From positions 11,901-75,900 of the forward strand of contig CAZSQN010000001.1 of NCBI GenBank assembly GCA_964609095.1: a DNA stretch of 64,000 nt, given 5' to 3'. This document shows, one piece after another, positions 661 through 38,512 of the stretch. This stretch comes from an uncultured Gammaproteobacteria bacterium. GTDB lineage: Bacteria; Patescibacteriota; Patescibacteriia; CAZSQN01. Positions within the stretch are counted from its first letter, which is position 1, and the number at the start of each line of letters is the position of its first letter. The notes under the pieces were generated by a model. It did no database searches. It was not told the origin of the DNA and saw only the letters and a list, made by a program, of their open reading frames with translations. The position numbers and the translations under genes are program-made.

Positions 661-719
661 TTAGCGTATAGCGTATAGCGTTTAGAATTATCCTAAACCC
701 TAAACGCTAAACCCTAAAT
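661..719. repeat. heptamer-repeat hairpin (TAGCGTTTAG ... CTAAACGCTAAACCCTAAA), family copy 1, immediately upstream of pnp
   Basis: seen directly: ttagcgtatagcgtatagcgtttag and inverted partner ctaaaccctaaacgctaaaccctaaa; related copies at 13565-13645, 38442-38512 and partial at 28479-28505. Confidence 0.6.
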
Positions 720-841
720 AAATGTTCTGGTCTCGAGACACACAGATGTCGCAGACATCTCCAGTCTCGCGATCAGGCTCAAATCTTTCGACTTCGCTCA
801 AGCTTATCCTGGGCAGGCGTCGAAGGATAACAACTGATCGT

Positions 842-3070
842 ATGCAAACACAAAAATTTTCCCTTGAATGGGCAGGAAGGAATCTTGAAATTGAAGTCGG
901 CAAATTTGCCGGCCAGGCCAACGGCGCCTGCACCGTCCGCTACGGCGACACCGTGGTTCTGGCCACCGCCACCATGTCCGATAATATCCGCGAAGGCATT
1001 GGATTTTTTCCTTTAATGGTGGATTATGAGGAACGGCTTTACGCCGCCGGCAAAATAAAGAGCTCCCGGTTTATGAAGCGCGAAGGCCGGCCGACGGACG
1101 AAGCCATTCTTACCGGACGCCTGGTAGACCGCTCCATCCGCCCGCTTTTTGACGACCGGATGCGCAACGATATTCAGGTCGTGCTTACCGTTTTCTCCGT
1201 TGACGGAGAAAATGATTCCGATATTCCGGCCTTGGTTGCCGCTTCCGCCGCTCTCATGATTTCCGATATTCCCTGGGATGGGCCGATCGCCGGAATCAGA
1301 ATAGGAAAAGTCGGCGATGAATTGGTTCTTAACCCGACCTTTGCCGCCCGCGAAAAGAGCGAACTTGATTTGGTTGTGGCCGGAACAAAAGAAAAAGTAA
1401 TCATGCTTGAGGCCGGCGCCAAAGAGCTTCCGGAAGAAACGGTCAGAGAAGCCGTCGCTCTGGCCCAAAAGCATTTGCACGCGGTAAGCGAATTCATCAA
1501 AGAAATAAAAAACAAGGTGGGTAAAGAAAAAAGAATCGTAGACGCCCCTCCGGCAACGGAAGAAGAAGCTGCCGCCCGCGAGGAAGAAAAAGTTATTGTC
1601 CAAAAAACCGAGGAATTCCTTGTTTCCCGCTACGAGAACGCTCTTTTCGGCAACCCGCAAGCGTCTAAAAAAGAAAAGCGCACGGCCCGCGAAGAGCTTG
1701 AAGAAAAAGTTGACGAGCACTTAAAAGAATCGGGCTACGGAAAAGAAAAAAGAAAAATCGGCGTTGAGCATGCCGGCCTTTATATGGAACAAGCGGTGAG
1801 CAAGGCGATTCTGGATAAGAACCTCCGGGTTGACGGACGCTCTCTTACCGACATCAGGCCGCTTTCCGTTGAAATATCCGCCATACCGCGCACGCACGGC
1901 TCGGCCGTTTTCTCCCGCGGAGAAACGCAGGTCTTAAACGCGGTCACGCTCGGCGCTCCGGGCGACGAGCAGACGCTTGAAGGCATGGAGCTTTCCGGAA
2001 AAAAGCGCTATTTCCACCACTATAATTTTCCTTCCTACTCCGTCGGCGAAACCGGACCGAACCGCGGTCCGGGCAGGCGCGAGATAGGACACGGCGCTTT
2101 AGCCGAACGCGCCGTTGAGCCGCTGCTTCCTCCGCGCGAAGAATTCCCGTATACCATCAGGTCGGTTTCCGAAGTCCTGTCTTCAAACGGCTCGTCTTCT
2201 ATGGCCTCAACCTGCTCCTCGTCTTTGGCTCTGATGGACGCCGGAGTTCCGTTAAAGTCGCACTGCGCCGGCATTGCCATGGGCTTGGCTTCCGATGACT
2301 CCGGCCGCTGGAAGGTCCTGACCGACCTCCAGGATTTGGAAGACGGCGACGGCGGCATGGACTTTAAAATAGCCGGAACGAGAATTGGAATCACCGCCAT
2401 CCAAATGGATACAAAAACCAGCGGCTTAACGCCGGAAATAGTTGAAATTACGCTAAAGCAGGCGCACGAAGCCAGAATGAAGATACTTGATGCCATGGAA
2501 GCCGTGATTCCGGCTCCGCGCCCGGAACTTTCTCCTTATGCCCCGCGCATAATTTCCTTCCACATCAATCCCGACTCCATCCGCACCGTTATCGGCCCCG
2601 GCGGAAAAATGATCAACGAAATCATAGACAAAACCGGCGTGACTATTGACATAGAAAACGACGGCTTGGTTTTGATAACTTCAACCAATGCCGAGGCGGC
2701 GCAAAAAGCCAGCGAGTGGATTAAAAATCTGACGCGGGAAGTAAAAGTTGGAGAGATATTTGAAGGCAAGGTCACCCGCCTTATGGAATTCGGGGCTTTT
2801 GTGGAAATTCTGCCCAAACAAGAAGGGCTGGTGCATATTTCCGAACTATCCGACAAGCGGGTTGATCGCGTTTCCGATGTGGTGAATATCGGCGATACGG
2901 TTTCGGTTAAAGTTATAGAAATTGACTCCATGGGCCGCACCAATCTTTCCATGCGGCAAGCGAAAAATCCCGACGCGCCGGTTGAAGTGCGCAAAAGAGA
3001 CGAGGGCGACCGCCGCGGCCGCGAACCAAGAAGAGAGCGGAGAGGCCCGCCGCGCGGACACGGCCGCTAA
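842..3070 (+). CDS. pnp: polynucleotide phosphorylase (PNPase)
   Basis: long ORF with N-terminal RNase PH repeats (GKFAGQANGACTVRYGDTVVLATA), KH and S1 domains at C-terminus (EGKVTRLMEFGAFVEILP); start chosen at internal MQTQKF (842) rather than ORF-track start 722. Confidence 0.93.
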   Translation: MQTQKFSLEWAGRNLEIEVGKFAGQANGACTVRYGDTVVLATATMSDNIREGIGFFPLMVDYEERLYAAGKIKSSRFMKREGRPTDEAILTGRLVDRSIRPLFDDRMRNDIQVVLTVFSVDGENDSDIPALVAASAALMISDIPWDGPIAGIRIGKVGDELVLNPTFAAREKSELDLVVAGTKEKVIMLEAGAKELPEETVREAVALAQKHLHAVSEFIKEIKNKVGKEKRIVDAPPATEEEAAAREEEKVIVQKTEEFLVSRYENALFGNPQASKKEKRTAREELEEKVDEHLKESGYGKEKRKIGVEHAGLYMEQAVSKAILDKNLRVDGRSLTDIRPLSVEISAIPRTHGSAVFSRGETQVLNAVTLGAPGDEQTLEGMELSGKKRYFHHYNFPSYSVGETGPNRGPGRREIGHGALAERAVEPLLPPREEFPYTIRSVSEVLSSNGSSSMASTCSSSLALMDAGVPLKSHCAGIAMGLASDDSGRWKVLTDLQDLEDGDGGMDFKIAGTRIGITAIQMDTKTSGLTPEIVEITLKQAHEARMKILDAMEAVIPAPRPELSPYAPRIISFHINPDSIRTVIGPGGKMINEIIDKTGVTIDIENDGLVLITSTNAEAAQKASEWIKNLTREVKVGEIFEGKVTRLMEFGAFVEILPKQEGLVHISELSDKRVDRVSDVVNIGDTVSVKVIEIDSMGRTNLSMRQAKNPDAPVEVRKRDEGDRRGREPRRERRGPPRGHGR

Positions 3071-3088
3071 ATTTAAACGCAAATCTCC

Positions 3089-4009
3089 ATGAGTCCCGTT
3101 TTTGCTGAAACGGCAGTTTCGCAAATTAATAAAAAATTATCAAAGGCGCCCAAAACGGCGAAAATTCTTATCATCGGCGTCCTTTTTGCTATTGCCTCAA
3201 ATATGGTCTTTAACTCGGTTCAACGGAAAATTGAGCCGATTGACGCCTGGAGCGAGGAAACCGTTTTGGTCATCCGCCGCCGCGCCAAGACGGATGAATT
3301 CTGGATTAGCGTAAAAGAAACGTTGATTTCCCTTGACCCGGAGTTCGGCGAGGCGTTAAAAAAAGTGGAGCAGAAAACAACCGTATCCCCTTTTGATTTG
3401 GCCCGGAAGATGCTTCCGGAACCGACAGAGCTTTTGATTATTAAAAAAGCCAACGCGGAAAACAGCGGCCTTCAATACGACTTTGCGCTGGTCACAAAAG
3501 CGGTCGGTCCGGGTATTGAAAATCTTCCGGCGGTTTTGGCGGCGGCGCGCGATTTCGCTTCCTGGTATCTGCCAAAGAAGCGGCTGGCAAAACTGCAAGA
3601 CGGCGCGACAATAACCGCGAATTTCGCGGACCCGTCAGATATACAAATAAAAAACGGCTCTTACAGGGGTTATGAGATAAAGTTTATACGCGAACCTGGT
3701 CTGCCTTTTGAATTTGCTTATGCCCAAAACAGCGGCTGGCTGTTATTTGCCACCTCCAAACTGGCTTTGGAGCAGCTTCTGGGCAGAGACGAACAAAAAA
3801 TTGATTTTAACTCCTTTAAGAGAAATTGCGCTTCGCCGAATAAGGAGATAGAAGTGTTTTTTAACCCCAAGCTGTTTAAAGTGGAGCAGACCCTGAATCC
3901 TATGGCTTTGGGCGGCCCGGTGCGGGCTCTTGTTCCCCTGTTTGATTCCAAGACAACAAAAGTAGTGGCCGATGGCGTGGTCTTAAGCTGGAAGAGGTGC
4001 GGCTTCTGA
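3089..4009 (+). CDS. hypothetical protein with one N-terminal TM helix
   Basis: 306-aa ORF, hydrophobic stretch AKILIIGVLFAIASNMVF; no recognisable catalytic motif. Confidence 0.45.
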   Translation: MSPVFAETAVSQINKKLSKAPKTAKILIIGVLFAIASNMVFNSVQRKIEPIDAWSEETVLVIRRRAKTDEFWISVKETLISLDPEFGEALKKVEQKTTVSPFDLARKMLPEPTELLIIKKANAENSGLQYDFALVTKAVGPGIENLPAVLAAARDFASWYLPKKRLAKLQDGATITANFADPSDIQIKNGSYRGYEIKFIREPGLPFEFAYAQNSGWLLFATSKLALEQLLGRDEQKIDFNSFKRNCASPNKEIEVFFNPKLFKVEQTLNPMALGGPVRALVPLFDSKTTKVVADGVVLSWKRCGF

Positions 4010-4164
4010 ATAAAAGCTGTGCATAACCCTGTGGAAAAGACCGTCCATATGTGGATAATCAAACAGCTTTTAAGCAATGAGATCGTTGATATCTCTGTGC
4101 ACAAATATATTAGACGCTAGGATATCCGCCATTTTGAGCCGTTTCCCCTTCATGGCCGACCGGG

Positions 4165-4193
4165 TTGACATTGAGTTTATTTCCTGATATAAT
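4165..4193 (+). promoter_or_regulatory. consensus sigma70-type promoter (TTGACA-17 nt-TATAAT)
   Basis: ttgaca at 4165-4170, 17-nt spacer, tataat at 4188-4193; no plus-strand ORF for about 590 nt downstream. Confidence 0.55.
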
Positions 4194-4199
4194 AGAAGC

Positions 4200-4560
4200 G
4201 TACAATTGTTCATTCCCAAATAAGAGAACTGCGCCGTAAAGAGTTAAGACGCAATTCCCTCTTCTCTACTAACCTAACATTTTAGGGGTTTCGGCCCCTC
4301 AAAAACAAAAAGAAAAGAAAAACCATTTTCTTCGGGCAAACCTGCATAAATTCCGCATTTTATGCGGAAATTGGTCCCTACCCAAGGATGGTAGAGAAGA
4401 TAAGTTCCTTTGTGGATTTTCATAGGTCTGCGCATGATTGCCGCATACTGGCGTCCCTCGCGGAGAGACACCGGTACGCGGCGGTCACGCAGCGATTGAA
4501 AATCCGAGGCGCGAGATGCCTCTAAGCAACTTTGTTTTTTGAGGCGACAACTCGCGCCTT
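4200..4560 (+). ncRNA. candidate non-coding RNA of about 360 nt, unclassified, in a 620-bp ORF-free region
   Basis: begins just downstream of the consensus promoter; several hairpins (aggggtttcggcccct, ccgcattttatgcgg, ctacccaaggatggtag); ends with stem aggcgcgag...ctcgcgcct followed by tttgtattt; I could not find RNase P, tmRNA or SRP signatures. Confidence 0.3.
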
Positions 4561-4633
4561 TTGTATTTGCGCAATCTTTGCAAAATTGCCATTATTTTTA
4601 TCTTTGTGTAAGGTATAAATATCCCAATAACCA

Positions 4634-4790
4634 CCCCGCACACAACTTGATTTAGGGGCGCTTTATATACACAACAATAGAACAGAAGAGTGTTTTAAAC
4701 TAAAAATAAATATTATTAAAAAACAAACACATCTTGATAATTGAAGCGGCATATTTATATATGCTTCAATAAAACAAGTTGTGTGCGGGG
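4634..4790. mobile_element. MITE/REP-like palindromic element (termini CCCCGCACACAACTTG / CAAGTTGTGTGCGGGG), copy H, 157 bp
   Basis: perfect 16-nt terminal inverted repeat; the element ends 1 nt before the ATG of the downstream DksA-like gene. Confidence 0.6.
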
Positions 4791-4791
4791 T

Positions 4792-5172
4792 ATGGATGAA
4801 AAAACTCTTAAAGAAATAGAACAGCGCCTGCTTGAAGAAAAAGACCGGCTTCTGAGAGAACTTAATCAGTTTACTCGCAAGAATCCTCATAACCCTGATG
4901 ATTATGACGCCAAATTTACGGAATTGCCCGAAGGCGCCGGCGCCGCTTCAGAAGAAGAAAACGCTTATCAGGTGACAACCTATAGCGACAACCTGTCAAT
5001 GGAGCGCACGCTTGAATCGTTGTTAAAAGACGTAAATAAAGCTCTCGCGCGCCTCGCCAAAGGCGAGTATGGCACTTGCCGCCATTGCGGCAAGCCAATA
5101 GACCCGAAACGGCTTTTGGCCAGGCCAACTTCTTCTTCGTGCATAGAATGCAAAAAACGGCTCACGGAATAA
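4792..5172 (+). CDS. DksA/TraR-family C4 zinc-finger protein
   Basis: coiled-coil N-terminus then C-x2-C-x17-C-x2-C (CRHCGKPIDPKRLLARPTSSSCIECK); start at MDEKTLKEIEQ. Confidence 0.7.
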   Translation: MDEKTLKEIEQRLLEEKDRLLRELNQFTRKNPHNPDDYDAKFTELPEGAGAASEEENAYQVTTYSDNLSMERTLESLLKDVNKALARLAKGEYGTCRHCGKPIDPKRLLARPTSSSCIECKKRLTE

Positions 5173-5618
5173 AAACGCGCGTATCCAGCATTTTCATAGC
5201 TTGTTTTGTTTTTGGCGCGTTATTTATTTTTGAACGTTTATTAAAATTGCTTGCCGCAGCTCGGCTCTCCGAAAACCAGACGGAGGGTTTTTTTATTATT
5301 TCCTCGCTTGGCTTGCGCCTGTTTAAAAATAAAAACTTTTTTGGAATTGTCGCGCTCCCTTCTTTCTTTGGAATAGCTCTAATGATTATCTTTTTAATAT
5401 TTATTTTCACCCTCTTGCGCAAAGAACTGGCCGGGGGTAAAAAAGTAGCGGCTCTGTGGCTTTCTTTGGCGCTTATCGGGGCGCTGTCTAATACCATTGA
5501 CCGCGTCTTTTTGGGCCAGGTGATTGATTATCTGGTTATCGGTCCGTGGGCCATCAATCTGGCCGATATGTTGATTGTGTCTGGACTAATAATGTATTTA
5601 AAAGATTCCAAATTCTAA
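5148..5618 (+). CDS. lspA: lipoprotein signal peptidase II
   Basis: four TM helices and LspA motifs GALSNTIDRVFLGQVIDYL and NLADMLIVSG; overlaps dksA-like stop by 25 nt. Confidence 0.75.
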   Translation: MQKTAHGIKTRVSSIFIACFVFGALFIFERLLKLLAAARLSENQTEGFFIISSLGLRLFKNKNFFGIVALPSFFGIALMIIFLIFIFTLLRKELAGGKKVAALWLSLALIGALSNTIDRVFLGQVIDYLVIGPWAINLADMLIVSGLIMYLKDSKF

Positions 5619-5620
5619 AC

Positions 5621-5735
5621 AAATCACAAAATTTTCAATTTCTAATTTCTAATTTTCAATAAATTTTCATTGAAACAATGAAGCATTGGAAATTGACTGT
5701 AAATTGAGAATTGAAAATTGATAATTATAAATTCT
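5621..5735. repeat. AT-rich palindromic intergenic element (aattttcaatttctaat ... attgagaattgaaaattgataatt)
   Basis: inverted arms seen directly; related copy at 60018-60100 (tcaataaatttttattga core). Confidence 0.4.
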
Positions 5736-5740
5736 AACTT

Positions 5741-7336: not shown

Positions 7337-8002
7337 ATGGCCTGGCCAAGATGTCTGGTTTTGGTTCGCCATGCGGAATCCGAAGGAAATGTGCTTTCGG
7401 TAGATGAGCGCGCTCGATTTGATAAAGCCACGCACGCTTACCCGCTGACGGCAAGGGGGCGGGAACAAGCCAGAGTAACCGGCGAATATCTTCAAAAGAA
7501 GTATGACCGTTTTGATATTCGCTATGTTTCCTACTACCAGCGTTCGCGGGAAACAATGGAGATAATGTGCCCGGGAGAAAAGGTTTACGAGGACCCGCGA
7601 TTGGCAGAAGCCCAGCGCGGCATCTATCACGCCATGACGCGCGATCAGATTAGAGCGCAGTTTCCCAGTGAACTTGAGCGCAAAAAGCGCGAAGGATTGT
7701 ACCATTACCGCCCGCTTGGCGGTGAAAACTGGCCTGATGTGGAATTGCGCATTCACAGTTTTCTCTCCACTCTCTCGCGCGATTATGTTGGAAAAAATGT
7801 GCTGATGGTAGTGCACGGACATTGGCTTTTGCTCTTCCAGCGGCTTATCCATCATTTCTCCATAGATGAAGCCGTGCGGCGCTACAAGGCCGGCGTGTTT
7901 GAAAACGCCTCGGTCACGCGCTATTGCGGAAGGCCCGCCGACAACAAATCCCATCTGGCGCTAGTGGAAGAAAATTCTGTTCCTTGGGCTGGAAAAATTT
8001 AA
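7337..8002 (+). CDS. histidine phosphatase (phosphoglycerate mutase-like) family protein
   Basis: RHG motif LVRHAESEGN near N-terminus and catalytic H further downstream (VVHGHWL). Confidence 0.8.
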   Translation: MAWPRCLVLVRHAESEGNVLSVDERARFDKATHAYPLTARGREQARVTGEYLQKKYDRFDIRYVSYYQRSRETMEIMCPGEKVYEDPRLAEAQRGIYHAMTRDQIRAQFPSELERKKREGLYHYRPLGGENWPDVELRIHSFLSTLSRDYVGKNVLMVVHGHWLLLFQRLIHHFSIDEAVRRYKAGVFENASVTRYCGRPADNKSHLALVEENSVPWAGKI

Positions 8003-8037
8003 TCACCCTAAACGGATAACTGATATTAGGTTTCCAT

Positions 8038-11294: not shown

Positions 11295-12026
11295 ATGAGC
11301 ACGAGCGCGCGCCAAGCGGCTTTGGAACTGCTTTCCGAACCATTTGCCACCGTCTATGGCTTCTGCCACGCTTGCGTGATTCAAATACAAAGATTAGAGC
11401 CCAACGAAAGGATTGGATTTCTAATCTGTATTTTGGAAAACTACGGGCTTGTTCCGCTAAAGAAGACGCTGTTTATGACCGAACATCTCTTGTCGGTTGA
11501 AAAACTTGACCAACTGGAGGCCGAACAAAATCAGAATCTGGAGATATTGTACAAAGCAACAGCAACTGTTTTTCCGCCAACAGAAGAATTTGCTAAATAT
11601 TTGCTTGGGGCCATGGATGCGCATAAGACGCCGGAGGAAAAGGCACTCGTTATCAGGCATCTGATTTTGCGCCAGCTTCTGCCTTACGCGCCGGTTCTGC
11701 CTAAGGCCTCCAAATGTCTTGCCGAAACGGAGATGGAAAAAGCTTTTGAGGAGTATCCAAAAGAAGCCGCCGCGATCAAACGGCTCTTTGCCTTTGGCAC
11801 AGAGGAGCACACTTGGTGCGAGGTGGCGGAAATTCTAATGAAGATACTGGCGAAAAAACCAGACGACGCTCAGATATTGCTTTTAGCCCTTTTCCTGACC
11901 GGATTAGCTAAAAAAGTTACCGTTGAAGCGGCCAGAATAGCGCTTGAAGAATTTCTAAAAGACAACGAGGTAATGATTGTTGCGGAAGAAGACGGTTCCA
12001 AGAATCCGCCAAAAAACGGAAATTGA
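11295..12026 (+). CDS. hypothetical protein
   Basis: 243-aa ORF followed by strong terminator; no motif recognised. Confidence 0.5.
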   Translation: MSTSARQAALELLSEPFATVYGFCHACVIQIQRLEPNERIGFLICILENYGLVPLKKTLFMTEHLLSVEKLDQLEAEQNQNLEILYKATATVFPPTEEFAKYLLGAMDAHKTPEEKALVIRHLILRQLLPYAPVLPKASKCLAETEMEKAFEEYPKEAAAIKRLFAFGTEEHTWCEVAEILMKILAKKPDDAQILLLALFLTGLAKKVTVEAARIALEEFLKDNEVMIVAEEDGSKNPPKNGN

Positions 12027-13447: not shown

Positions 13448-13564
13448 AGCATCCGAAGAAAATCTTCAACCGCTATCTCCACAGAGAATACCCAAAAACG
13501 CGGCGGGAGTCAATCCCCCTTGCTCTAAATAGAGATTTTTGTTAATCTTCAAATATCTTAATTA

Positions 13565-13645
13565 AAGCGTTTAGCAGTTAGCGTATAGCGTTTAGTTTTT
13601 ACACTAAACCCTGAACCCTGACCGCTAAACCCCATACCCTAAAAT
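13565..13645. repeat. heptamer-repeat hairpin family copy 2 (gcgtttagcagttagcgtatagcgtttag ... ctaaaccctgaaccctgaccgctaaaccccataccctaaaat), abutting ppa ATG
   Basis: same GCGTTTA / TAAACGC and CCCTAAA heptamers as at 661-719. Confidence 0.6.
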
Positions 13646-14182
13646 ATGAATCTTTGGCACGATTTGGCTCTTGGCGATAAGGCCCCGGAAGAATTTAATG
13701 TGGTCATTGAAATCCCGCGCGGCAGTTCTAATAAATACGAAGTGGACAAGGACTCCGGCTTGATAAAATTGGACCGGGTCTTTTACAGTCCTGTTTATTA
13801 TCCAACTGATTACGGTTTTGCCCCGCAAACCTACTGGCATGACAACGACCCGCTGGATGTGATGGTTTTAACCACGCACCCGCTTCTGCCCGGCGTTATT
13901 GTTAAAGTAAGGCCGATTGGCGTAGTGCATATGGTTGACTCCGGCGACAAAGACGAAAAAGTGGTGGCCGTGGCGGTAAAAGATCCGCGTTATGCCGATA
14001 TCAAAGATATTTCCGATCTGCCAACGCATTGGACTAAAGAAATCCAAAACTTTTTTGAACATTACAAAGACCTTGAGGGCAAAAAAGTGGAAATCAACGG
14101 TTTTGAAGGCCGCGAAGCCGCGTTAAAAACAGTCAAAGAGGGAATAGCGATGTATTCGGAAAAAATAAAAAAGGAGGCCTAA
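13646..14182 (+). CDS. ppa: inorganic pyrophosphatase
   Basis: VVIEIPRGSSNKYEVDKDSG ... DPLDVMVL family I PPase signature. Confidence 0.95.
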   Translation: MNLWHDLALGDKAPEEFNVVIEIPRGSSNKYEVDKDSGLIKLDRVFYSPVYYPTDYGFAPQTYWHDNDPLDVMVLTTHPLLPGVIVKVRPIGVVHMVDSGDKDEKVVAVAVKDPRYADIKDISDLPTHWTKEIQNFFEHYKDLEGKKVEINGFEGREAALKTVKEGIAMYSEKIKKEA

Positions 14183-17702: not shown

Positions 17703-17742
17703 CAAAAAAACCTCCCCAATCAGGAGGTTTTTTGTCTATTTT
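17703..17742. terminator. bidirectional terminator (aaaaaaacctccccaatcaggaggtttttt)
   Basis: stem cctcc...ggagg flanked by A-run and T-run. Confidence 0.55.
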
Positions 17743-18019
17743 TAGCCGATTTTATTGGGTCCATGCCGCCGGCAGAAAACGGGTTGCAGCGTAAAAGGCG
17801 CCAGACGGCCATTATCCCTCCTTTTATAAGACCGCGGGCGCTTATTGCCTCGGCTGCGTATTGGGAACACGAGGGCTGGAATTTACAATAACCATAAGGA
17901 TAGAGGAATCTAAACAAGCCGTGATCAAACGAGATTGTCTTTTGATAAAGCTTAATCAGTCCCAACGCGGTTTTTATCCCTATCTGCTTAAGATAAAACG
18001 CAATTATCATACGGGGCAT
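17720..18019 (-). CDS. yidD: membrane protein insertion efficiency factor YidD
   Basis: conserved [20 protein letters not shown] ... RCNPF motif. Confidence 0.85.
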
Positions 18020-18022
18020 ATT

Positions 18023-18373
18023 CTATTTTTCCGGCAGCAATAAATTCATTCTTTTAAGAGCTGTCCTTACTTCCGCTTTGATCTCGGGAAAATCAGCGAG
18101 GAGCGCGGCAGATCTAGCCGAAACAACAATATCAAATCCGCGTTTTATGCCGGGCAGTTCCGCTCGGAGCGCCTCTCTTAAACGGCGTTTGATTAAATTC
18201 CTTTTAGTGGCTCTTTTGTGGACTTTGGTGCCGCAAATAATAGCCAGCCGCGTCAAAGGCAGCTTATTGGGCCTAAATCTAAAAATGGCAATCGGCGTAG
18301 CCAAATATCTGCCCCGCTTAAAGACCTCTTCAATTTCGCGGGATTTCCGCAATCTGTTTGCCGTCGGGTACAT
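18023..18373 (-). CDS. rnpA: ribonuclease P protein component
   Basis: basic 116-aa protein, RLRKSREIEEVFKRG, directly downstream of rpmH. Confidence 0.9.
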   Translation of the reverse strand: MYPTANRLRKSREIEEVFKRGRYLATPIAIFRFRPNKLPLTRLAIICGTKVHKRATKRNLIKRRLREALRAELPGIKRGFDIVVSARSAALLADFPEIKAEVRTALKRMNLLLPEK

Positions 18374-18405
18374 AAACAGCTTTTGTTCAAACGGCCCTAA
18401 AATGA

Positions 18406-18540
18406 TTATTTCCTTCTTTTTGCCACAACTAACCGGTGCCTGCCCTTGGCTCTTCTTCGACGCAAAACATTTCTGCCTCCGAAAGTTTTCATTCGCGAAC
18501 GAAACCCGTGAACTTTGATATGTTTTCTCTTTTTAGGTTT
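18406..18540 (-). CDS. rpmH: 50S ribosomal protein L34
   Basis: translated by hand: [50 protein letters not shown]; too short for the ORF track. Confidence 0.9.
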
Positions 18541-18700
18541 GTATGTCCGTTTTGGCATAAATTTATGAGGCGTTAATTGTTTAGATATTAATTATACACA
18601 TATTTTCAACAGTTTATCAACATTTTGATAAATTTTACTATATCTTCTATCTCATATATGATTGTGTTATAGTGTTTTTAGAATTCTTGAACCATCTTTT
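18541..18700. promoter_or_regulatory. rpmH-dnaA divergent intergenic region; candidate oriC / dnaA promoter
   Basis: AT-rich; near-consensus DnaA box TTATCAACA at about 18613 and TGTGTTATA nearby. Confidence 0.35.
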
Positions 18701-20083
18701 ATGGAGCCATCAACTCTCTGGCAGGCGACCTTGGGCGAGCTGGAACTCCAGCTTTCAAAGGTCCACTTTCTGACCTGGTTTAAAAATACCTACATCTCTT
18801 CCATGAACGATGGACGAATAACTATTAGCGTCCCCAATACATTTACTAAAACCTGGCTTGAAAAAAGATACCATACCGCCATCCTGAAAGCGCTTCAACA
18901 TGTCCTGAATATCCCCGTGCGCGATATATCCTACGAGGTTAGAGCGGTCGCCGATACAAAAATCAGCTCCGCCCCGCCATCCGGCTTTGGGACATCCTCC
19001 GCCCCAATGGAGCGCGGACGAATCAAAGATCTACCGACCGTTGCCGAAACAGTTAACAAATACGGTCTCAGGGTAAATTATACTTTTGAGAATTATATAG
19101 TCGGGAAAGGCAATGAGCTTGCCCATGCGGCGGCGCAAGCGGTCGCCGATAATCCCGGCCAGAAATATAACCCTCTTTTTATTTATGGCGGCGTTGGTTT
19201 AGGGAAGACCCATCTTATCCAGGCGATTGGCAACAGATTGCTTCAAAAAAATCCCCACGCCAAAGTCCTTTATATTACTTCGGAACAATTTACCAATGAT
19301 TTTGTCAATGCCATGAGAAGCGGCAGTGGAAAAGAATTCAAGGAACGTTATCGCAATGTTGATATTCTTTTAATTGACGACGTCCAGTTTATATCTGGAA
19401 AAGAAGGCACCAAAGAAGAGCTTTTTCATACTTTTAACACCCTCCACCATGCCGGACGCCAGGTCGTCTTTACTTCCGACCGCCCGCCAAAGGAAATAGG
19501 GGCGGAAGAACGGTTAAAATCAAGATTTGAGTGGGGTGCCACCGTTGATATCTCCATTCCCGATCTGGAAACAAGAATCGCCATTTTAAGCCATAAGTGC
19601 GGGGAAAAACAAATAAATATTTCGACCGAGATACTTCATTTTATCGCCTCTGCCCTTCAATCAAACGTAAGAGAGCTTGAAGGTGCTTTGAATAAGATTA
19701 TTGCCAATTATCAGCTAAGAAATACCCCCATCTCGCTTGAGACGACCAAGGCGCTGCTTTCCGGGTTTGCCAATAATTCGGGCAAAAAATCCCTCACTCC
19801 CAAATTCCTGATTGAGGCGGTGACAAATTATTATGATTTATCCATTGACGATATAATCGGCAAAAGCCGCGAACAAAAGCTCGCCTTTCCCCGCCAGATT
19901 ATAATGTTCCTTTTGCGCGAAGAGCTTGAGGTTTCCTATCCCTCAATCGGCAAAGAAATCGGCGGCCGCGACCATACTACAGCCATGCACGCTTATAACA
20001 AAATAAAATTTGAAATAGAAAATGATGAGCGGGTTAAAAGAGATGTGGAAATTATTAAACAGCGCCTTTATAACAGTGCATAA
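18701..20083 (+). CDS. dnaA: chromosomal replication initiator DnaA
   Basis: Walker A GGVGLGKTHL, sensor motifs, C-terminal DNA-binding helix; start at MEPSTLWQ. Confidence 0.95.
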   Translation: MEPSTLWQATLGELELQLSKVHFLTWFKNTYISSMNDGRITISVPNTFTKTWLEKRYHTAILKALQHVLNIPVRDISYEVRAVADTKISSAPPSGFGTSSAPMERGRIKDLPTVAETVNKYGLRVNYTFENYIVGKGNELAHAAAQAVADNPGQKYNPLFIYGGVGLGKTHLIQAIGNRLLQKNPHAKVLYITSEQFTNDFVNAMRSGSGKEFKERYRNVDILLIDDVQFISGKEGTKEELFHTFNTLHHAGRQVVFTSDRPPKEIGAEERLKSRFEWGATVDISIPDLETRIAILSHKCGEKQINISTEILHFIASALQSNVRELEGALNKIIANYQLRNTPISLETTKALLSGFANNSGKKSLTPKFLIEAVTNYYDLSIDDIIGKSREQKLAFPRQIIMFLLREELEVSYPSIGKEIGGRDHTTAMHAYNKIKFEIENDERVKRDVEIIKQRLYNSA

Positions 20084-20323
20084 AATTGTTAATAATCAGT
20101 GGAGGAGTCATGACTTATAAACTGTCCGGCGGAAAAAGAGGATTATTTTAATTTTAATCCCTTTTCTTCTCACTGTTCCCTCCACAATTTATTCTTCGCG
20201 ATAAAATCTAAATTCTATTAGATAATCGCTCCACCAAGCCATCTTTTGGAGCGATTATAATTTTTTGCACTTACTAACACCTCCTACTACTATTACTATT
20301 AATAAATATAAAGAGATAATATT
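20084..20323. promoter_or_regulatory. dnaA-dnaN intergenic AT-rich region; alternative oriC candidate
   Basis: AT-rich stretch ctactactattactattaataaatataaagagataatatt and degenerate DnaA-box-like cctccacaa. Confidence 0.3.
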
Positions 20324-21466
20324 ATGAAATTTTCCTGCACACGAGAGAACTTGGCGCAAGCGCTTTCCATCGTCAGCCACATAACTTCAAAAAATATCCA
20401 ACTGCCCATCCTTAATAACGTTTTGATGAAAACCGACGGAAAGATATTGAAATTTTTCTCAACTAATTTGGAAATATCCATTTCCTGCTTAGTGCGAGGG
20501 CATGTTGAAGAGGAGGGTTCATTCACTGTTCCTTCAAAACTTTTTTCCGATTATGTCGGATTATTGCCCAATGACAGGATTGATTTAGAGCTTCGTAACG
20601 ATGACACTATTAATGTTGTCTGCCAAAGCCATGAAACCAAAATTAAGGGCGTTTCAGCCGTTGATTTTCCCCTTTTTCCAAAAGTGCAAACAGATTCAAA
20701 ATTCAGAATTAACGCCAAGGATTTAAAAGGAGCGATTGAAGGGGTTATTTTTGCCGTTTCGCCAAATGAAACAAGGCCGGAGATAAGCGGCGTTTTGTTT
20801 GATTTTAGGCCTGATGGCGTTAATGGAAAATTAATTCTTGCCGCCACAGACAGTTATCGCTTGGCGGAAGCCACAATTGGCTTGCATGGAGAAGGAAACG
20901 GCTCAAAAGTAATTATTCCGTCAAGAACAGCCGCGGAATTAATGAGAATATTATCAATAAAACGGGATGATATGTCCGAGGGCGAATCGGTTGAGGTCTC
21001 AATTGGCGAGAGCCAGATTGTCTTTGCTTATGACAGCATTGAACTCATCTCTCGCATTATTGAAGGAAGATACCCGGAATATTCGCAAGTCATCCCTGAT
21101 TCTTTTGGAACAGAAATGACCGTAGAAAAAGAAGTATTGGCCGGAGCCGTCCGCGCGGCGTCTCTTTTTTCAAAGTCGGGCCTGCACGATGTGACTATTG
21201 CCGTAGAAGACGGCGGGGAGGTGCTTATTTCTTCGGCTGATAATCAGATCGGCGAAAATAAGAGCAAAATAAAAGCTGAACTAAAAGGCAGGGAAAATAC
21301 GACCACCTTGAATTATAGATATCTTTTGGACGGGGTGGGCAGGATAACGTCAAATAAGATCTTTTTTAGAATGGTGGACGGCGTGAGCCCGTGCGTGATA
21401 ACCCCCGGCGTTGGCGCTAACGAGATTCAAAAGTATGTTTATATTGTCATGCCGATCAAACAATAA
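20324..21466 (+). CDS. dnaN: DNA polymerase III beta sliding clamp
   Basis: 380-aa three-domain clamp; MKFSCTRENLAQALSIVSHI N-terminus. Confidence 0.95.
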   Translation: MKFSCTRENLAQALSIVSHITSKNIQLPILNNVLMKTDGKILKFFSTNLEISISCLVRGHVEEEGSFTVPSKLFSDYVGLLPNDRIDLELRNDDTINVVCQSHETKIKGVSAVDFPLFPKVQTDSKFRINAKDLKGAIEGVIFAVSPNETRPEISGVLFDFRPDGVNGKLILAATDSYRLAEATIGLHGEGNGSKVIIPSRTAAELMRILSIKRDDMSEGESVEVSIGESQIVFAYDSIELISRIIEGRYPEYSQVIPDSFGTEMTVEKEVLAGAVRAASLFSKSGLHDVTIAVEDGGEVLISSADNQIGENKSKIKAELKGRENTTTLNYRYLLDGVGRITSNKIFFRMVDGVSPCVITPGVGANEIQKYVYIVMPIKQ

Positions 21467-27275: not shown

Positions 27276-28489
27276 AGGTGAAAGAAATTTATTTGGATAA
27301 TTCAGCCGCGACTTCTGTGGATCCGCGAGTGCTCTCTGCCATGCTGCCGTATTTTTCCGAAATCTGCGGCAACCCCTCAAGTTTTAATAGCGCCGGCAAG
27401 CTGGCCAAAGACGCTGTTGAAAGAGCGCGCGAAAAAGTGGCCCGGATTTTTAATTCCAAGATTGACGAGGTTATTTTTACGGCCGGCGGCACCGAAGCCA
27501 ACAATTTGGCAATTTTGGGCTATGCCCGCGCCAACAGGGAAAAAGGCAATCATCTGATAACGCAAAAAACTGAGCACCACTCGGTTCTTGAAGCTATGGA
27601 GCATTTGGAAAAGAAAGAAGGGTTTAAGGTCACCTATCTTGATGTTGACGAATATGGCCTGGTTGATTCCAAAAAATTGGAGGCGGCCATTACCAAAGAA
27701 ACAATTTTGGTCTCCATTATGTATGCCAATAACGAAATTGGCACCGTAGAGCCAATCGCGGAGATGGGAAAAATCATCGCGGCTAAGCGCCAGGAGCTGG
27801 GAAGCGCCTTGCGCTTCCACAGCGATGCCTGCCAGGCGGCCGGCAGCTTGGATTTGGATGTAAACAGATTGCATATTGATTTGCTGACCATCAACGGTTC
27901 AAAAATTTATGGGCCTAAAAATGTCGGCGTTTTGTACATCAAAACCGGCGTAAAACTTCAGCCGCTTATCTTTGGCGGGCCGCAGGAACGCGCCTTAAGG
28001 CCCGGCACGGAAAATGTTCCCGGCATAGTCGGCCTTTCTGTTGCTTTAGAGATTGCTCAAAATGAAAAAGAAAAAGAAAACAGCCGCCTTACGGCTATCC
28101 GCGACCGCCTTATAAACGGGATTCTCTCAACTATTCCAAAGTCAGTGTTAAACGGGCATCCCGCCAAACGGCTTCCAAACAACGTTAATATTTCCATTTT
28201 GGACATAGAGGGCGAAGCGCTTGTTTTGTATCTGGACGCCAAGGGCGTTTATGCCTCAACCGGCTCGGCTTGCACCTCCGCCTCCCTTGACCCATCTCAT
28301 GTTATTGTGGCCACCGGCATGCCTTATGAAGCAAGCCACGGCAGTTTGCGCCTGACGCTCGGACGCCAAACAACGGCCGAAGACGCCGAATATGTGATAA
28401 AAATTCTGCCGGAAATAGTAGAGAAATTGCGGGCGATTTCGCCGGTTAATTTAGATATGAAGCACTATAAACGAGTGCTTAGCGGTTAG
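27272..28489 (+). CDS. iscS: cysteine desulfurase
   Basis: PLP-dependent class V aminotransferase; SGSACTS active-site Cys loop; 405 aa. Confidence 0.95.
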   Translation: MKVKEIYLDNSAATSVDPRVLSAMLPYFSEICGNPSSFNSAGKLAKDAVERAREKVARIFNSKIDEVIFTAGGTEANNLAILGYARANREKGNHLITQKTEHHSVLEAMEHLEKKEGFKVTYLDVDEYGLVDSKKLEAAITKETILVSIMYANNEIGTVEPIAEMGKIIAAKRQELGSALRFHSDACQAAGSLDLDVNRLHIDLLTINGSKIYGPKNVGVLYIKTGVKLQPLIFGGPQERALRPGTENVPGIVGLSVALEIAQNEKEKENSRLTAIRDRLINGILSTIPKSVLNGHPAKRLPNNVNISILDIEGEALVLYLDAKGVYASTGSACTSASLDPSHVIVATGMPYEASHGSLRLTLGRQTTAEDAEYVIKILPEIVEKLRAISPVNLDMKHYKRVLSG

Positions 28490-28519
28490 CGTTCAGCGTT
28501 TAGAAATTAATATTTTTTT

Positions 28520-29161: not shown

Positions 29162-29239
29162 TTGGGAATTATGAATTAAAAATTACGCATTATGAATAAT
29201 TTGAATCTTAATTCTTTATTCCTGATTTTTAATTCAAAT

Positions 29240-29686: not shown

Positions 29687-29687
29687 T

Positions 29688-33820: not shown

Positions 33821-33922
33821 TTGACGAGCCGGTTTTTTTATGTTAAGGTGAGCAATGCTCTTTACAATTAAAATTGGCTGAAAAAACAGCAACAAAACAA
33901 CCACCAAGAAGGAGAAAGAAAA

Positions 33923-34180: not shown

Positions 34181-34200
34181 GACGAGGAAAGGGAGAAAAA

Positions 34201-35013: not shown

Positions 35014-35029
35014 GAAAGGAGAAGATGAA

Positions 35030-36325: not shown

Positions 36326-36339
36326 CATACCTGTTCTTT

Positions 36340-36530
36340 AATTTAATACCCTCTGACAAATTGTCAGAGGGATTTTTTTAAAAAAATCCCGCGATACTTT
36401 TTATAGTATCGCGCGGGCTCGAATTCAGCTTTTGTCAATCGTCATTGACAAAAGAATGAATTTGTGGTAAAAGTATATATTCGCTCTTTTGATAAATCCA
36501 GCACATAATCTATGTGCTGGATAAGAAAAG
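36340..36530. promoter_or_regulatory. cluster of five near-perfect palindromes in one intergenic region
   Basis: ctctgacaaattgtcagag; gggatttttttaaaaaaatccc; cccgcgatactttttatagtatcgcgcggg; ttttgtcaatcgtcattgacaaaa; tccagcacataatctatgtgctgga, all read directly. Confidence 0.45.
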
Positions 36531-36543
36531 AAAGGAAAGAAAA

Positions 36544-36984
36544 ATGGTCGGACCGCTCCGTATCGCGTTTGTTTTTTTCATTGTTTCCGGCTGCGGATTT
36601 TCCGCAACGCGGACTGAAGTGAATTCCGCCGGACGCTATTCCACCCGCGGCTATTGCCTGGGAGTTGGTTGCGCCCCTGACTATGGCTTGGGCAATGCTT
36701 GGGTTCCCGGCATTGCGCCGCCATACCCATTCTCTCCCTCTGACGCGCGGTTCGGAGCCGTTGAGGCCTACCGGGCGCGCAATCGCTGGGTAAGAACTCC
36801 CTCTTCGACTTCGCTCGGGACAGCCCCCTCGACTTCGCTCGGGACAGGGGAAGCGAGAGACCCTCGCGTCGCGCCGCTTATCCGCGAGGTTCAGCGGCAG
36901 AACAATGTGCTACGCGAGCTGGAGCGCGAAGTGTGCGAAAATTCCGATGACGAATGCGCAACGGATGAAAGGAGTTCAAGATGA
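36544..36984 (+). CDS. lipoprotein with tandem 9-aa repeat (TPSSTSLGT APSTSLGTG)
   Basis: signal peptide with lipobox VSGC; direct nucleotide repeat at 36796-36850. Confidence 0.6.
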   Translation: MVGPLRIAFVFFIVSGCGFSATRTEVNSAGRYSTRGYCLGVGCAPDYGLGNAWVPGIAPPYPFSPSDARFGAVEAYRARNRWVRTPSSTSLGTAPSTSLGTGEARDPRVAPLIREVQRQNNVLRELEREVCENSDDECATDERSSR

Positions 36985-37457
36985 AAAACTATTGCGTTTT
37001 GGCTGCTTTTCTTTGTTCCTGCGGCTACTCCACTTATCAGTACGATACGCCACACAGCCAGTCATACGGCGATTATGGCGGCGAAGCGAGCTACGCGGCG
37101 AGTTCGGCGCAGATCGCGGTTCCGGTTTCGCCGGCTAACCAGTGGGGTTGCGCTTTGCCGCTTCAGCTGGAGATCAGAAATCCGTCGCGAGAGTATGACG
37201 TGGTGGTGCACGCGCACCGGCTGGTGGATGACGGCACCACTTTTGAGACATCCGTAAATGTGCCTCGCGCGGGAAGCAGAATCATTTGCCTGCCCGACAT
37301 AGGCGCGTATTCTTTTGAAACCGAGTATTATCTTATCTCGCACGGCGTTCCGCAGCTTATGGGCTGCGGAATTGAGCGGGCAGAGTACGGTTTCTATACC
37401 AACTACGACGGCCGGCACGGGTTCCGCGTTTACCCGCGGCCCGACCGTTCTTGCTAA
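36981..37457 (+). CDS. putative lipoprotein / secreted hypothetical protein
   Basis: N-terminal hydrophobic segment ending CSCG; overlaps upstream stop (ATGA). Confidence 0.55.
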   Translation: MKNYCVLAAFLCSCGYSTYQYDTPHSQSYGDYGGEASYAASSAQIAVPVSPANQWGCALPLQLEIRNPSREYDVVVHAHRLVDDGTTFETSVNVPRAGSRIICLPDIGAYSFETEYYLISHGVPQLMGCGIERAEYGFYTNYDGRHGFRVYPRPDRSC

Positions 37458-37470
37458 GAGCAAAGTTCAT

Positions 37471-37510
37471 TAAACCGCAACACCTCCGCATCCGCGGAGG
37501 TGTTTTTTTG
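37471..37510 (+). terminator. rho-independent terminator (cacctccgcatccgcggaggtg + tttttttg)
   Basis: perfect 9-bp GC-rich stem followed by T7. Confidence 0.7.
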
Positions 37511-37538
37511 TAAGCGTGAATTTTGTTAGGGTCCATGT

Positions 37539-37928
37539 TCAAGCCGCGGCTTGAGTGAGCGCGCGGACAACAAATTGCGCGATGCCGTAAGCCAAGACGA
37601 TAATAATCAGACCAATGACCGAGTTTTTAATAATGTCTTTTGCTTTGGTCACCTGGTCTTCGTTTCCGGCGGCTGTCATCCAGAGAAAACCCCCGTAAAG
37701 GATAAGCACAAGCAGGATGGTGCCGATGATGCCCATGGCATAACTTATGATTGTTCCCACTAGCGTGGCCAGAGAAGTTTGGCCGCCGGCGCCCGGGAGC
37801 CGCGCGCTTCTGGCGGTTTCTTCAAGCCCGAATCCTCCCTCGGCCCCGTTTTGAGCCAACGTCAGAGAAGGCGCAATCAGGCCGGCTAATGATATTGAAA
37901 GCTTGAATATCTTTTTTAATTGTTTCAT
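37539..37928 (-). CDS. VirB2/TrbC-like pilin-type small membrane protein, paralog 1
   Basis: signal peptide, then hydrophobic hairpin with conserved YGGFLWMTAAGNEDQVTKAKDII ... GLIIIVLAYGIAQFV. Confidence 0.65.
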   Translation of the reverse strand: MKQLKKIFKLSISLAGLIAPSLTLAQNGAEGGFGLEETARSARLPGAGGQTSLATLVGTIISYAMGIIGTILLVLILYGGFLWMTAAGNEDQVTKAKDIIKNSVIGLIIIVLAYGIAQFVVRALTQAAA

Positions 37929-38058
37929 AAGAATTATTCACTTTCGTGAAGCGGGTTCTATGATCTCATTTGGCGGAATCATAGGCCCCGCTCCACAAGA
38001 ATGCAGATAAAGGGCCCCTCTATAAGAGAACGGCGACGACGCGTCGTGTCGTCCTTCT

Positions 38059-38421
38059 CTACACTGCCGCGGCAGTAAGCGACCGCACGACAAAGCTGGC
38101 AATCGCGTAAGAGGTGACAACGATAATTAAGCCGATAACTCCGGCTGTGATAATCTTTTTGGCTTCCCCAACCTTTTCCTCGTTTCCTCCGGCTGTCATC
38201 CAGGTAAAGCCGCCCCAGAGAATAATCAATACGGCGACAATGCCCAAAAATCCCATAGCCACATTGATGATTCTGGTGATGACCACGCGCACATCAGCGG
38301 TTGGAAGCGCGATTTCTCTCTGCACTTCTTCCAGACCAAGATTCAATTCGGCCGCTTTGGAGACGAGCGGCATCAAAGCCGCGCCAATTCCAGCGCCGAT
38401 TTTAACAAGCATTTTTTTCAT
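38059..38421 (-). CDS. VirB2/TrbC-like pilin-type small membrane protein, paralog 2
   Basis: WGGFTWMTAGGNEEKVGEAKKII ... GLIIVVTSYAIASFV. Confidence 0.65.
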   Translation of the reverse strand: MKKMLVKIGAGIGAALMPLVSKAAELNLGLEEVQREIALPTADVRVVITRIINVAMGFLGIVAVLIILWGGFTWMTAGGNEEKVGEAKKIITAGVIGLIIVVTSYAIASFVVRSLTAAAV

Positions 38422-38441
38422 TTATATCACCTGCCTTTCTT

Positions 38442-38512
38442 GTTAGGGTTTAGCGTTTAGGGTTTAGGGTTTAGTTTTTCACTAAACGCTATACGCTATA
38501 CGCTGAACGCTT
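38442..38512. repeat. heptamer-repeat hairpin family copy 3: (GGGTTTA/GCGTTTA)x4 - loop - (TAAACGC/TATACGC)x4
   Basis: gttagggtttagcgtttagggtttagggtttagtttttcactaaacgctatacgctatacgctgaacgc read directly; between pilin paralogs 2 and 3. Confidence 0.6.

Follow-up and report, generated by a model that had tools for sequence, protein, structure and literature searches.

Palindromes lying in frame in conserved protein genes, at the positions of surface loops, were reportedly described by Ogata and colleagues in 2000 as Rickettsia palindromic elements (RPEs); these elements are 100-150 bp long, are not built from heptamers, and also occur in RNA genes and between genes. Short tandemly repeated repetitive sequences (STRR) are said to have been found, by Vioque in 1997, within the RNase P RNA genes of heterocystous cyanobacteria. 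In this study, we analyzed a stretch of 64,000 nucleotides (positions 11,901 to 75,900 of contig CAZSQN010000001.1, assembly GCA_964609095.1; below called the window), which carries hairpins whose two arms are tandem arrays of the seven-nucleotide unit TAGSGTW, here called family A. We think it probable, at roughly 60%, that the family-A sites belong to a dispersed family of non-autonomous palindromic repeats, about 70 nt long and with heptamer arms, akin to STRR, RPEs and the paired repetitive extragenic palindromes (REPs) known as REPINs.

REP and REPIN elements are mobilised by RAYT transposases (PMC3116915, PMC3337134, PMC3733652), and a REP bears the tetranucleotide GTAG or CGTC as a tag at one end (PMC3733652). 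For STRR, PMC4692102 cites three heptanucleotides in Calothrix PCC 7601. Among the long simple repeats of bacteria, the heptamers form the most common class (Mrazek 2007, as relayed in PMC4679880), and their abundance possibly stems from polymerase slippage (PMC4679880 and PMC4692102). TAACTGA heptamers are found in marine Beggiatoaceae, cyanobacteria and Bacteroidetes as sets of 2-6 repeats a few nucleotides 5′ of start codons (MacGregor 2015, PMC4679880), while the G-rich heptamers GGGAATC and GGGGAYT of Xanthomonas and Nostoc form G-quadruplexes (Rehm 2015, PMC4692102).

Family-A hairpins of the window

An earlier note on this DNA had reported three full copies of the hairpin, at 661-719, 13565-13645 and 38442-38512, and a half copy at 28479-28505. 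Its description is largely right, and all four are present, with the following limits and contexts:

659..719, + strand: family-A hairpin copy 1, with 5′ arm (TAGCGTW)x3+TAG, loop AATTATC and 3′ arm CTA(AACSCTA)x3
13566..13642, + strand: family-A hairpin copy 2, in the divergent gap between an M23/LysM peptidase gene (- strand) and ppa (+ strand)
38441..38512, - strand: family-A hairpin copy 3, between two pilin genes of the type IV secretion system (T4SS) type
28479..28503, + strand: one-armed family-A array, TTAGCGG TTAGCGT TCAGCGT TTAG, 17 nt 5′ of the nifU-like ATG 28520

Copy 1 reads TTAGCGT ATAGCGT ATAGCGT TTAG / AATTATC / CTAAACC CTAAACG CTAAACC CTAAAT, and copies 2 and 3 are built analogously, the stems of the full copies being 6-bp blocks with single mismatches between them. 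In the window, the 5′ arm is made of TAGCGTW units and the 3′ arm mostly of WACCCTA units. This arm asymmetry (GCGT vs ACCC) is common to all three copies, and the C.C mismatches to which it gives rise are kept among them. The predicted stem of copy 2 spans 13569-13630, and two extra C-rich units extend the array to 3 nt short of ATG 13646.

The sites are real and far from chance. Allowing up to one mismatch, TTAGSGTWTAGSGT matches 14 times in the window against 0.07 matches expected; for a 17-mer with up to three mismatches, 24 matches face 0.94 expected, and all 24 fall in the four family-A sites or in a related TAGCTTA array at 46876-46907. Likewise, RNA folding gave -21.7 kcal/mol (z -7.8) for copy 1, -24.7 kcal/mol (z -6.1) for copy 2 and -23.0 kcal/mol (z -6.0) for copy 3, with no shuffle reaching equal energy. 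The description of each site as a long imperfect hairpin thus stands for the three full copies (z -6 to -8) and fails for the half copy, which has no complementary arm and no significant RNA fold (z -0.2). At gathering score, Rfam 15 returned only four tRNAs in the window, and the hairpins match none of its curated RNA families.

As stable hairpins just past stop codons, the elements resemble intrinsic terminators; as arrays with GGGTTTA units, they resemble the plant-type telomere repeat, which is GGGTTTA, and the minus strand of copy 2 has four G-runs. Both identities, terminator on the one hand and telomere-like or G-quadruplex element on the other, are nevertheless highly improbable. At the hairpins of the window a terminator scanner called nothing, only 11 of 98 hairpins among the matches listed from the metagenome search described below have a T-rich tail behind them, and elements of this kind also sit within ribosomal-protein operons, in a 5′-untranslated region (UTR), in coding sequence and in RNase P RNA. 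An intrinsic (Rho-independent) terminator was therefore rejected for want of scanner calls and of a U-tract in most copies. The telomere likeness to which the earlier note had drawn attention proved incidental: TAGCGTW, and not TTTAGGG, is the unit that prevails in the family, units with GGGT are a minority, most copies have fewer than four G-runs, and the arrays, with 3-5 mixed units, lie inside a contig of 112.8 kb and not at an end of it.

Spread and anatomy of the family

On genome contigs, the loose pattern AGCGTTTAGN{4,12}CTAAAC gave mostly chance matches, and the loci without a genuine hairpin were reused as an 836-kb control. Genuine TAGSGTW hairpins were found in three metagenome-assembled genomes (MAGs), namely L108 (Paceibacterota), L114 (Patescibacteria) and L019 (Omnitrophota), and each of them occupies a gap between a stop codon and the next ATG. 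A more specific pattern, with TAGCGT required in one unit and a loop of 2-12 nt, was used on metagenomes and yielded at least 120 contigs with at least 122 non-redundant hairpins. This set is defined by the pattern and includes related genomes, so that its counts are not independent, and its gene contexts are longest-ORF heuristics (ORF, open reading frame). All hairpin counts given below for the metagenomes are counts among the matches listed.

The family consensus is (TAGCGTW)4-TAG / 3-12 nt loop / CTA-(WACGCTA)4, about 70 nt in all. A typical metagenome form reads TT-TAGCGTT-TAGCGGA-TAGCGTT-TAGCGTA-TAG / loop / CTA-TACGCTC-TACGCTA-TACGCTA-AA. The commonest arm has four units (70 of 122 hairpins), and variant units recur at fixed positions across unrelated flanks. 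Around the hairpins, the preference for the heptamer is strong: the 120 metagenome loci among the matches listed hold 229 arrays of period 7, against 3, 10, 3, 1 and 1 for periods 6, 8, 9, 10 and 11.

As to the hosts, for which taxon labels are the database labels of homologues, the GroEL encoded beside the hairpin of contig L126 is 90-95% identical to many Omnitrophota GroELs, while the adenylate kinase beside a TAGGGT-rich hairpin in L240 resembles those of the candidate phyla radiation (CPR). Many other genes next to metagenome hairpins belong to amino-acid biosynthesis, whose genes are mostly absent from CPR. Judged by the Omnitrophota-type GroEL, the CPR-like adenylate kinase and these biosynthetic neighbor genes, the TAGSGTW family spans at least two phyla, with abundant copies in Omnitrophota and in several CPR lineages. 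Among 2.9 million viral contigs, the number of family-A hairpins was zero, and a phage vector for the family is accordingly unsupported.

Pairing was analyzed with the register of the units optimised while the seventh position was ignored. It extends over 31 nt per arm and ends abruptly. T1, A2, G3 and G5 are paired in most cells and nearly invariant. Position 4 (C or G) covaries, the partner being C in 57% of cells with G in the 5′ arm vs 14% with C there, and position 6 covaries as well. At the seventh position (A or T), only 34% of cells are paired where base frequencies predict 42% (p = 4.5e-4). Six base pairs followed by one mismatch, A.A or U.U, are thus repeated along the stem. Since seven is not a multiple of three, an array of at least three TAGNNNN units also supplies a stop codon in all three frames, as its complementary arm does for the opposite strand.

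These regularities bear on the possibility that the element is a binding platform for a sequence-specific DNA- or RNA-binding protein, in which the inverted TAG-S-G-T-W arrays and not the hairpin itself would be conserved. Such a platform would agree with the retention of one unit across two phyla, with the near invariance of four of its positions and the below-chance pairing of the seventh, and with the systematic arm difference in the window (GCGT vs ACCC), including its conserved C.C mismatches. We nonetheless regard it as quite unlikely. No candidate protein was found; hairpins of quite different heptamers stand at equivalent sites, even at the ppa site; the covariation of S4 and T6 favors pairing; and, the RNase P RNA gene described below apart, the family was seen only outside genes, unlike motifs of the uptake-signal type.

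For tests of strand preference, 98 hairpins were oriented by their flanking genes. The fold energies of sense and antisense strands do not differ (-31.2 vs -31.7 kcal/mol, p = 0.29), nor do the numbers of G.U-type and A.C-type mismatches (77 vs 87, p = 0.48). Equal folding and the lack of a G.U excess mean that there is no wobble signature of selection at the level of the transcript. An orientation bias is visible in other features, as the gene-proximal end GCTAAAA was counted 28 times in one orientation vs 7 in the other and the loops are A-rich on the sense strand. This bias could come from selection on the RNA, from strand-specific insertion, or from the skew of A over T on coding strands.

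Gene context and turnover

According to heuristic ORF calls at the metagenome loci, 69 hairpins lie in same-strand gaps, 13 in divergent and 7 in convergent ones. For the 122 hairpins, the next start codon lies a median of 14 nt downstream (modes 0-7 and 14-26 nt) and the preceding stop a median of 5 nt upstream; in about one quarter of cases the array itself provides this stop codon with its outermost TAG. The closeness to start codons that the earlier note had emphasized is thus found, and it is matched by an equally tight placement against upstream stops. In these compact genomes, ordinary same-strand gaps measure 0-50 nt, so any inserted element would look tight against both stop and start. 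Downstream of the hairpins, 146 Pfam families were recognized in 114 proteins, among them members of ribosomal-protein operons (L11, L1, S13, S16 and others), GroEL, tRNA synthetases and biosynthetic enzymes. A function or regulon common to these 114 proteins was not found with Pfam. A regulon was rejected on this diversity of downstream families, and gene-specific regulation of pnp or ppa is unlikely.

In the window, the gaps of two genes could be compared with those of relatives:

842..3070, + strand: pnp (polynucleotide phosphorylase), start corrected; an ORF taken from 722 is 40 codons too long
13646..14182, + strand: ppa (inorganic pyrophosphatase); ATG 13646 is backed by homologues
13513..13560, + strand: conserved block upstream of the ppa hairpin, TTGCTY-17/18 nt-TAATCT/TAACCT ... 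CAATAT, kept in relatives

Hairpin 1 begins 6 nt past the stop codon (652-654) of an NYN-domain gene. The earlier note had it end at the ATG of pnp, but ATG 722 is not the start of this gene: the true start lies at 842, about 120 nt past the hairpin. In the ORF from 722, the Pfam domain RNase_PH begins only at residue 52, a PNPase-type N-terminus is placed by homology at M41 (nt 842), and in the syntenic relative L243, whose pyrophosphatase (PPase) is 92% identical, pnp is called from the equivalent ATG with 742 aa. The start at 722 is an artefact, because the heptamer array extends the ORF. Between hairpin and start, the pnp leader (720-841) holds a stem-loop region, GGTCTCGAGACAC...CAGATGTCGCAGACATCTC...GTCTCGCGATC, which is kept in L243 with compensatory changes (GATGTC/GACATC vs GACGT/ACGTC) and is a candidate for an autoregulatory or RNase III-type leader structure.

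For ppa, the proposal that the hairpin ends at the ATG needs qualification: the element does lie close to ATG 13646, 3 nt separating this codon from the array and about 18 nt from the predicted stem, and no Shine-Dalgarno sequence precedes it. The block at 13513-13560 is likely the ppa promoter and was not called by a promoter consensus scanner. With a promoter there, the hairpin would be almost the whole ppa 5′UTR. Copy 3 was said to lie upstream of a pilin gene; it does so, 22 nt before the pilin ATG 38421, and the pilins are of the T4SS type (PF18895, TrbC/VirB2-like). This hairpin starts 2 nt after the stop codon of the pilin gene 38513-38851, and the 22-nt spacer contains a Shine-Dalgarno sequence. 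At least five T4SS-pilin (PF18895) genes, including forms of 427 aa and 454 aa, are located at 37539-40241 of the window and, past the window end, at 19764-21047 of L247; this gene group adjoins a gene for a solute-binding protein. The half copy includes the iscS stop codon, TAG 28487-28489.

Comparison of orthologous gaps revealed a rapid turnover. At pnp, L243 has a clean gap of about 51 nt without a hairpin, and this empty site keeps a single CTAAATAA beside the conserved pnp leader. At ppa, L243 carries an orthologous family-A hairpin with one 7-nt unit fewer, and in L244 (86% identity) the conserved promoter-like block is followed at this place by a heptamer hairpin of another kind, (GAAACYT)n...(TTCATGN)n, whereas L251 (87%) has this block and no hairpin. 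More distant relatives have ppa 17-24 nt after nusA, and the strain-level contigs L002-L004 are identical at the ppa hairpin. Outside these sites, L243 lacks a second type of heptamer hairpin (family B, see below) between lspA and a comM-like gene, where its gap is 31 nt, and the groES-groEL gap measures 82, 27 or 49 nt in three Omnitrophota with 93-95% identical GroEL. From these comparisons of related sequences, the heptamer hairpins appear to be gained, lost, resized and replaced over short evolutionary scales. Presence or absence and changes in units among relatives mean that no site requires its hairpin, a result opposed to the close tie with pnp and ppa that the earlier note had suggested.

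Heptamer hairpins are also found inside genes. In L249 (Omnitrophota contig Ga0265297_10000122), which has many heptamer hairpins with units other than TAGSGTW, two of them lie in frame in valS, (TCAGCYN)n/(NAGCTGA)n at 1422-1497 and (AGTCCAC)n/(CCGTGGA)n at 2138-2206. The encoded peptides are SAFSRQPSAISKKRKAESCELKAES and another insert close to the zinc-binding region, and both hairpins fall exactly at gaps of the alignment with the Thermus ValRS 1GAX, where these loops are absent; the sole TGA of the valS array that would be in frame reads TGT. Further TCAGCTN hairpin copies were noticed in L249 at 5565-5660 and 7652-7730. For the TAGSGTW family itself no in-frame insertion was seen, the valS cases being sister hairpins and the one in a window ORF (see below) a direct array. 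The Paceibacterota MAG L108 (JAESTJ010000004.1) has at 4501-5165 (- strand) an RNase P RNA gene that two family-A hairpins and one AGCTNNN-type hairpin expand to about 700 nt. It carries the universal elements GAGGAAAGUCCGGAC and ACAGAAUCCGGCUUA; against bacterial RNase P class A, for which the cut-off is 100, its score is 37.9 bits (E = 3e-10). Being located in operons, in a 5′UTR and, in relatives, in a coding gene and an RNase P RNA, the hairpins must be transcribed; those within valS, RNase P RNA and window ORFs show that RNA polymerase and ribosomes pass through such structures.

One could therefore think of a cis-acting RNA element, that is, a structure in the 5′UTR or between cistrons selected for the stability of mRNA ends or for translational coupling, in which the hairpin would mask the adjacent start codon until ribosomes complete the gene before it. 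Several observations would fit: a stop codon located at the outer 5′ unit or within it and a start codon 0-26 nt away from the 3′ base, many downstream genes without room for a Shine-Dalgarno sequence, frequent ribosomal-protein genes downstream, the ppa 5′UTR hairpin behind its promoter-like block in three of four close relatives even where the unit differs, the orientation bias with A-rich loops and tails on the sense strand, and some covariation. Still, the tight spacing is expected for any insert into same-strand gaps that are already 0-50 nt long, the hairpin is missing at pnp and at ppa in close relatives, and hairpins are found in convergent gaps, coding sequence and RNase P RNA. Neither folding nor wobble pairs give the sense strand an advantage, and the neighboring genes share no common function. 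Selection for a cis-acting RNA role is therefore, in our assessment, unlikely as the main explanation.

Heptamer background, origin of the hairpins and relation to known systems

Family A is not the only heptamer-built repeat of the window. Tandem Repeats Finder and an own period scan gave at least 12 period-7 arrays of several unit types; in the period scan, 11 arrays of period 7 stand against 0-1 for each of the periods 5, 6 and 8-11, and the control of 836 kb from unrelated bacterial loci has five period-7 arrays. By our own ORF calls, 12 of 73 gaps between genes, about one in six, hold a heptamer array. The further arrays are:

5630..5727, + strand: family-B hairpin (AATTTYC)n ... (GAAAATT)n in the gap from lspA to the comM-like gene; z -3.3
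60016..60097, + strand: family-B hairpin, ending 2 nt before the cytidylate-kinase ATG 60100; z -3.5
51085..51200, + strand: family-C hairpin (TCTAATN)n ... (NATTAGA)n directly after the stop of a SpoIID-like gene; z -4.6
53954..54054, - strand: family-C hairpin between ruvB and an 85-aa gene; z -5.0
29166..29235, + strand: weak AT-rich heptamer hairpin GAATTAT.../...TCTTAAT between two NifU-like genes; z -2.6
46876..46907, no strand assigned: (TAGCTTA)x4.6 perfect direct array, one base off the family-A unit
40207..40242, no strand assigned: AGCTTAT array of the same unit family as 46876-46907, overlapping the first 12 codons of the ORF 38877-40241 (- strand)
45211..45245, - strand: (GGAATTT)x5 perfect array, in frame in the Wzy_C/O-antigen-ligase-like ORF 44199-45434 (- strand)

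The cores of the two family-B copies are homologous. The array at 46876-46907 lies 5 nt 5′ of the start of a polysaccharide-flippase-like gene (46870, - strand), which has no Shine-Dalgarno sequence, and the ORF 38877-40241 encodes a pilin-like protein of 454 aa of the T4SS-pilin type. KFQIPNSKFQIP, the peptide encoded by the array at 45211-45245, lies between predicted membrane segments, and the array has the look of a recent expansion. Relatives have heptamer arrays at sites not equivalent to those of the window, namely AAATCTC/AAAACTA near a divergent start in L246 (1119-1147) and GCGTTWC between rnpA and dnaA in L243 (12066-12087), which shows that the period-7 tendency is clade-wide. The proteins nearest to the window PPase carry the labels Azambacteria, Kerfeldbacteria, Moranbacteria and Patescibacteria, and this affinity together with the T4SS-pilin genes places the host of the window in CPR.

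Three further observations concern the window as such. A yidD-rnpA-rpmH / dnaA / dnaN cluster is located at 17720-21466, and the cumulative GC skew climbs steadily past about 24 kb; the window probably spans the region of the chromosomal replication origin. At 57027-57098 (- strand), a tRNA-Ile with anticodon TAT (UAU) is predicted; in most bacteria, AUA is read by a lysidine-modified CAU tRNA, and the host lineage may have an unusual strategy of AUA decoding. Adjoining ruvB, a small ParE-toxin-like gene beside a partner of 75 aa (window region 55147-55494; L247 7546-8023) forms a putative toxin-antitoxin pair.

With so many unit types per genome, the hairpins might have a purely local origin, by polymerase slippage on 7-nt units and fold-back copying without any movement of whole elements. 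Perfect young direct arrays such as (GGAATTT)5 and (TAGCTTA)4.6, orthologues that differ by whole units, and the over-representation of heptamers in the literature would agree with it. However, such an origin fails to explain one unit with the same 4+4 architecture and the same variant positions at more than 120 unrelated sites in two phyla, and it fails to explain the arm asymmetry common to the three window copies. As a full account it thus seems improbable.

A dispersed repeat family explains these observations most simply. Family A would be one of several heptamer-hairpin families in a CPR/Patescibacteria genome prone to heptamer arrays, and its members would be insertion and expansion elements of fast turnover that settle wherever a hairpin of such size is tolerated. 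These places would be stop-to-start gaps and 5′UTRs and, for the sister families, protein surface loops, where they lie in frame, and the peripheral helices of the RNase P RNA. Because the 4+4 architecture with the same variant units at fixed positions recurs at unrelated sites in two phyla, and because the three window copies share their arm asymmetry, we infer that the family has spread by copying of whole elements. The hairpins would then be transcribed passively, as passengers of host RNAs, and effects at the RNA level would be secondary and not tied to pnp, ppa or pilin genes. Candidates for such effects are protection of mRNA ends, masking of the adjacent start with relief by upstream translation, and the stops in three frames on both strands.

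Several points weigh against this reading. No transposase, HUH or other mobilising gene was seen among the scanned window genes (about 70 kb of the genome read), and no target-site duplication is visible, so that mobility is deduced only from presence and absence and from shared master sequences. Empty sites could be explained by deletion instead of insertion, as the CTAAATAA left at pnp would allow. The recurrence of a hairpin at the ppa 5′UTR in three of four close relatives leaves room for a function, as does the covariation by which base pairing is partly kept at two positions of the unit. Moreover, a purely neutral element need not show an orientation bias such as that of the variant unit TAGAGCG (18-19 sense vs 3-4 antisense) or of the seventh-position mismatches (A.A 125 vs T.T 67). 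Finally, the search pattern and the inclusion of related genomes bias the metagenome set, whose gene calls are heuristic.

A bolder interpretation can be built on the same data. The TAGSGTW hairpins could be a still-active cross-phylum replicator or a functional module in Omnitrophota and CPR, two unrelated groups of ultra-small groundwater bacteria that depend on hosts, served by an unrecognised protein that measures 7 nt and for which the mismatch at the seventh position is a recognition feature, with the stop-to-start placement coupling or gating translation; the protein could be, e.g., a hairpin-specific single-strand nuclease/transposase or an RNA-processing factor. We consider this doubtful, although conceivable.

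Genomes of CPR and Omnitrophota are regarded as streamlined and repeat-poor. This view contrasts with a heptamer array in about one of six window gaps and with one hairpin family at more than 120 sites in two phyla. The regular architecture and the cross-phylum spread in ultra-small groundwater bacteria deserve attention, also as no description of the family was obtained from the searchable literature, neither with the literal repeat strings nor with heptamer terms combined with Patescibacteria or Omnitrophota. For genome annotation, it matters that the arrays lengthen ORFs artificially, as happens with pnp, add peptides to proteins and bring in stop codons, and that insertions hide RNase P RNA from covariance models, as in L108 and perhaps in other CPR genomes. 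The family also offers a tractable case for how palindromes spread without visible transposases and why a length of seven is preferred, a question that has stood since the surveys of STRR and long simple repeats. Regularly mismatched hairpins between stop and start would likely affect mRNA processing and translational coupling in these not-yet-cultured organisms.

Of the known systems, TIGR (tandem interspaced guide RNA) arrays were rejected, there being neither an array of 36-nt units nor an associated Nop-domain protein. The G-rich heptamers GGGAATC and GGGGAYT are similar in forming intergenic heptamer arrays that vary in length and sequence at the same gaps in close relatives and are occasionally inverted, but most family-A copies have no four G-runs and are built as hairpins. 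The TAACTGA repeats share the proximity to start codons, the frequent lack of a Shine-Dalgarno sequence, the occurrence in ribosomal-protein operons, the missing functional pattern downstream, and a patchy cross-phylum distribution that suggests transfer; they differ in their unit and in being direct (169 direct sets, 1 inverted), whereas family A consists of inverted hairpins.

Like REPINs, the family-A elements are extragenic high-copy imperfect palindromes of similar size, with two inverted arms and a spacer, master-sequence-like copies at unrelated sites and no target duplication. Unlike REPINs, they have heptamer-periodic arms and lie also in divergent promoter-side gaps and directly at start codons, and no RAYT gene was seen in the scanned genes of the roughly 70 kb that were read. 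They bear no GTAG or CGTC end tag either: their ends are TTTAGCG... and ...CGCTAAA, and GTAG is found only in the internal variant unit GCGTAGAGCG. With RPEs, the heptamer hairpins have in common the in-frame position of the sister hairpins in valS of L249 and the occurrence both intergenically and in RNA genes; the sequences are unrelated, the construction from heptamers is different, and for the TAGSGTW family itself no in-frame case was seen.

As in STRR, tandem 7-nt units of several types per genome are mostly intergenic, vary between relatives, are capable of forming stem-loops, and are found inside an RNase P RNA gene, here that of L108. In contrast to STRR, the hosts are Patescibacteria and Omnitrophota and not heterocystous cyanobacteria, the units are TAGSGTW, one unit is common across phyla, and the standard form sets two inverted arms, 4+4, compactly around a short loop, where STRR form long direct arrays.

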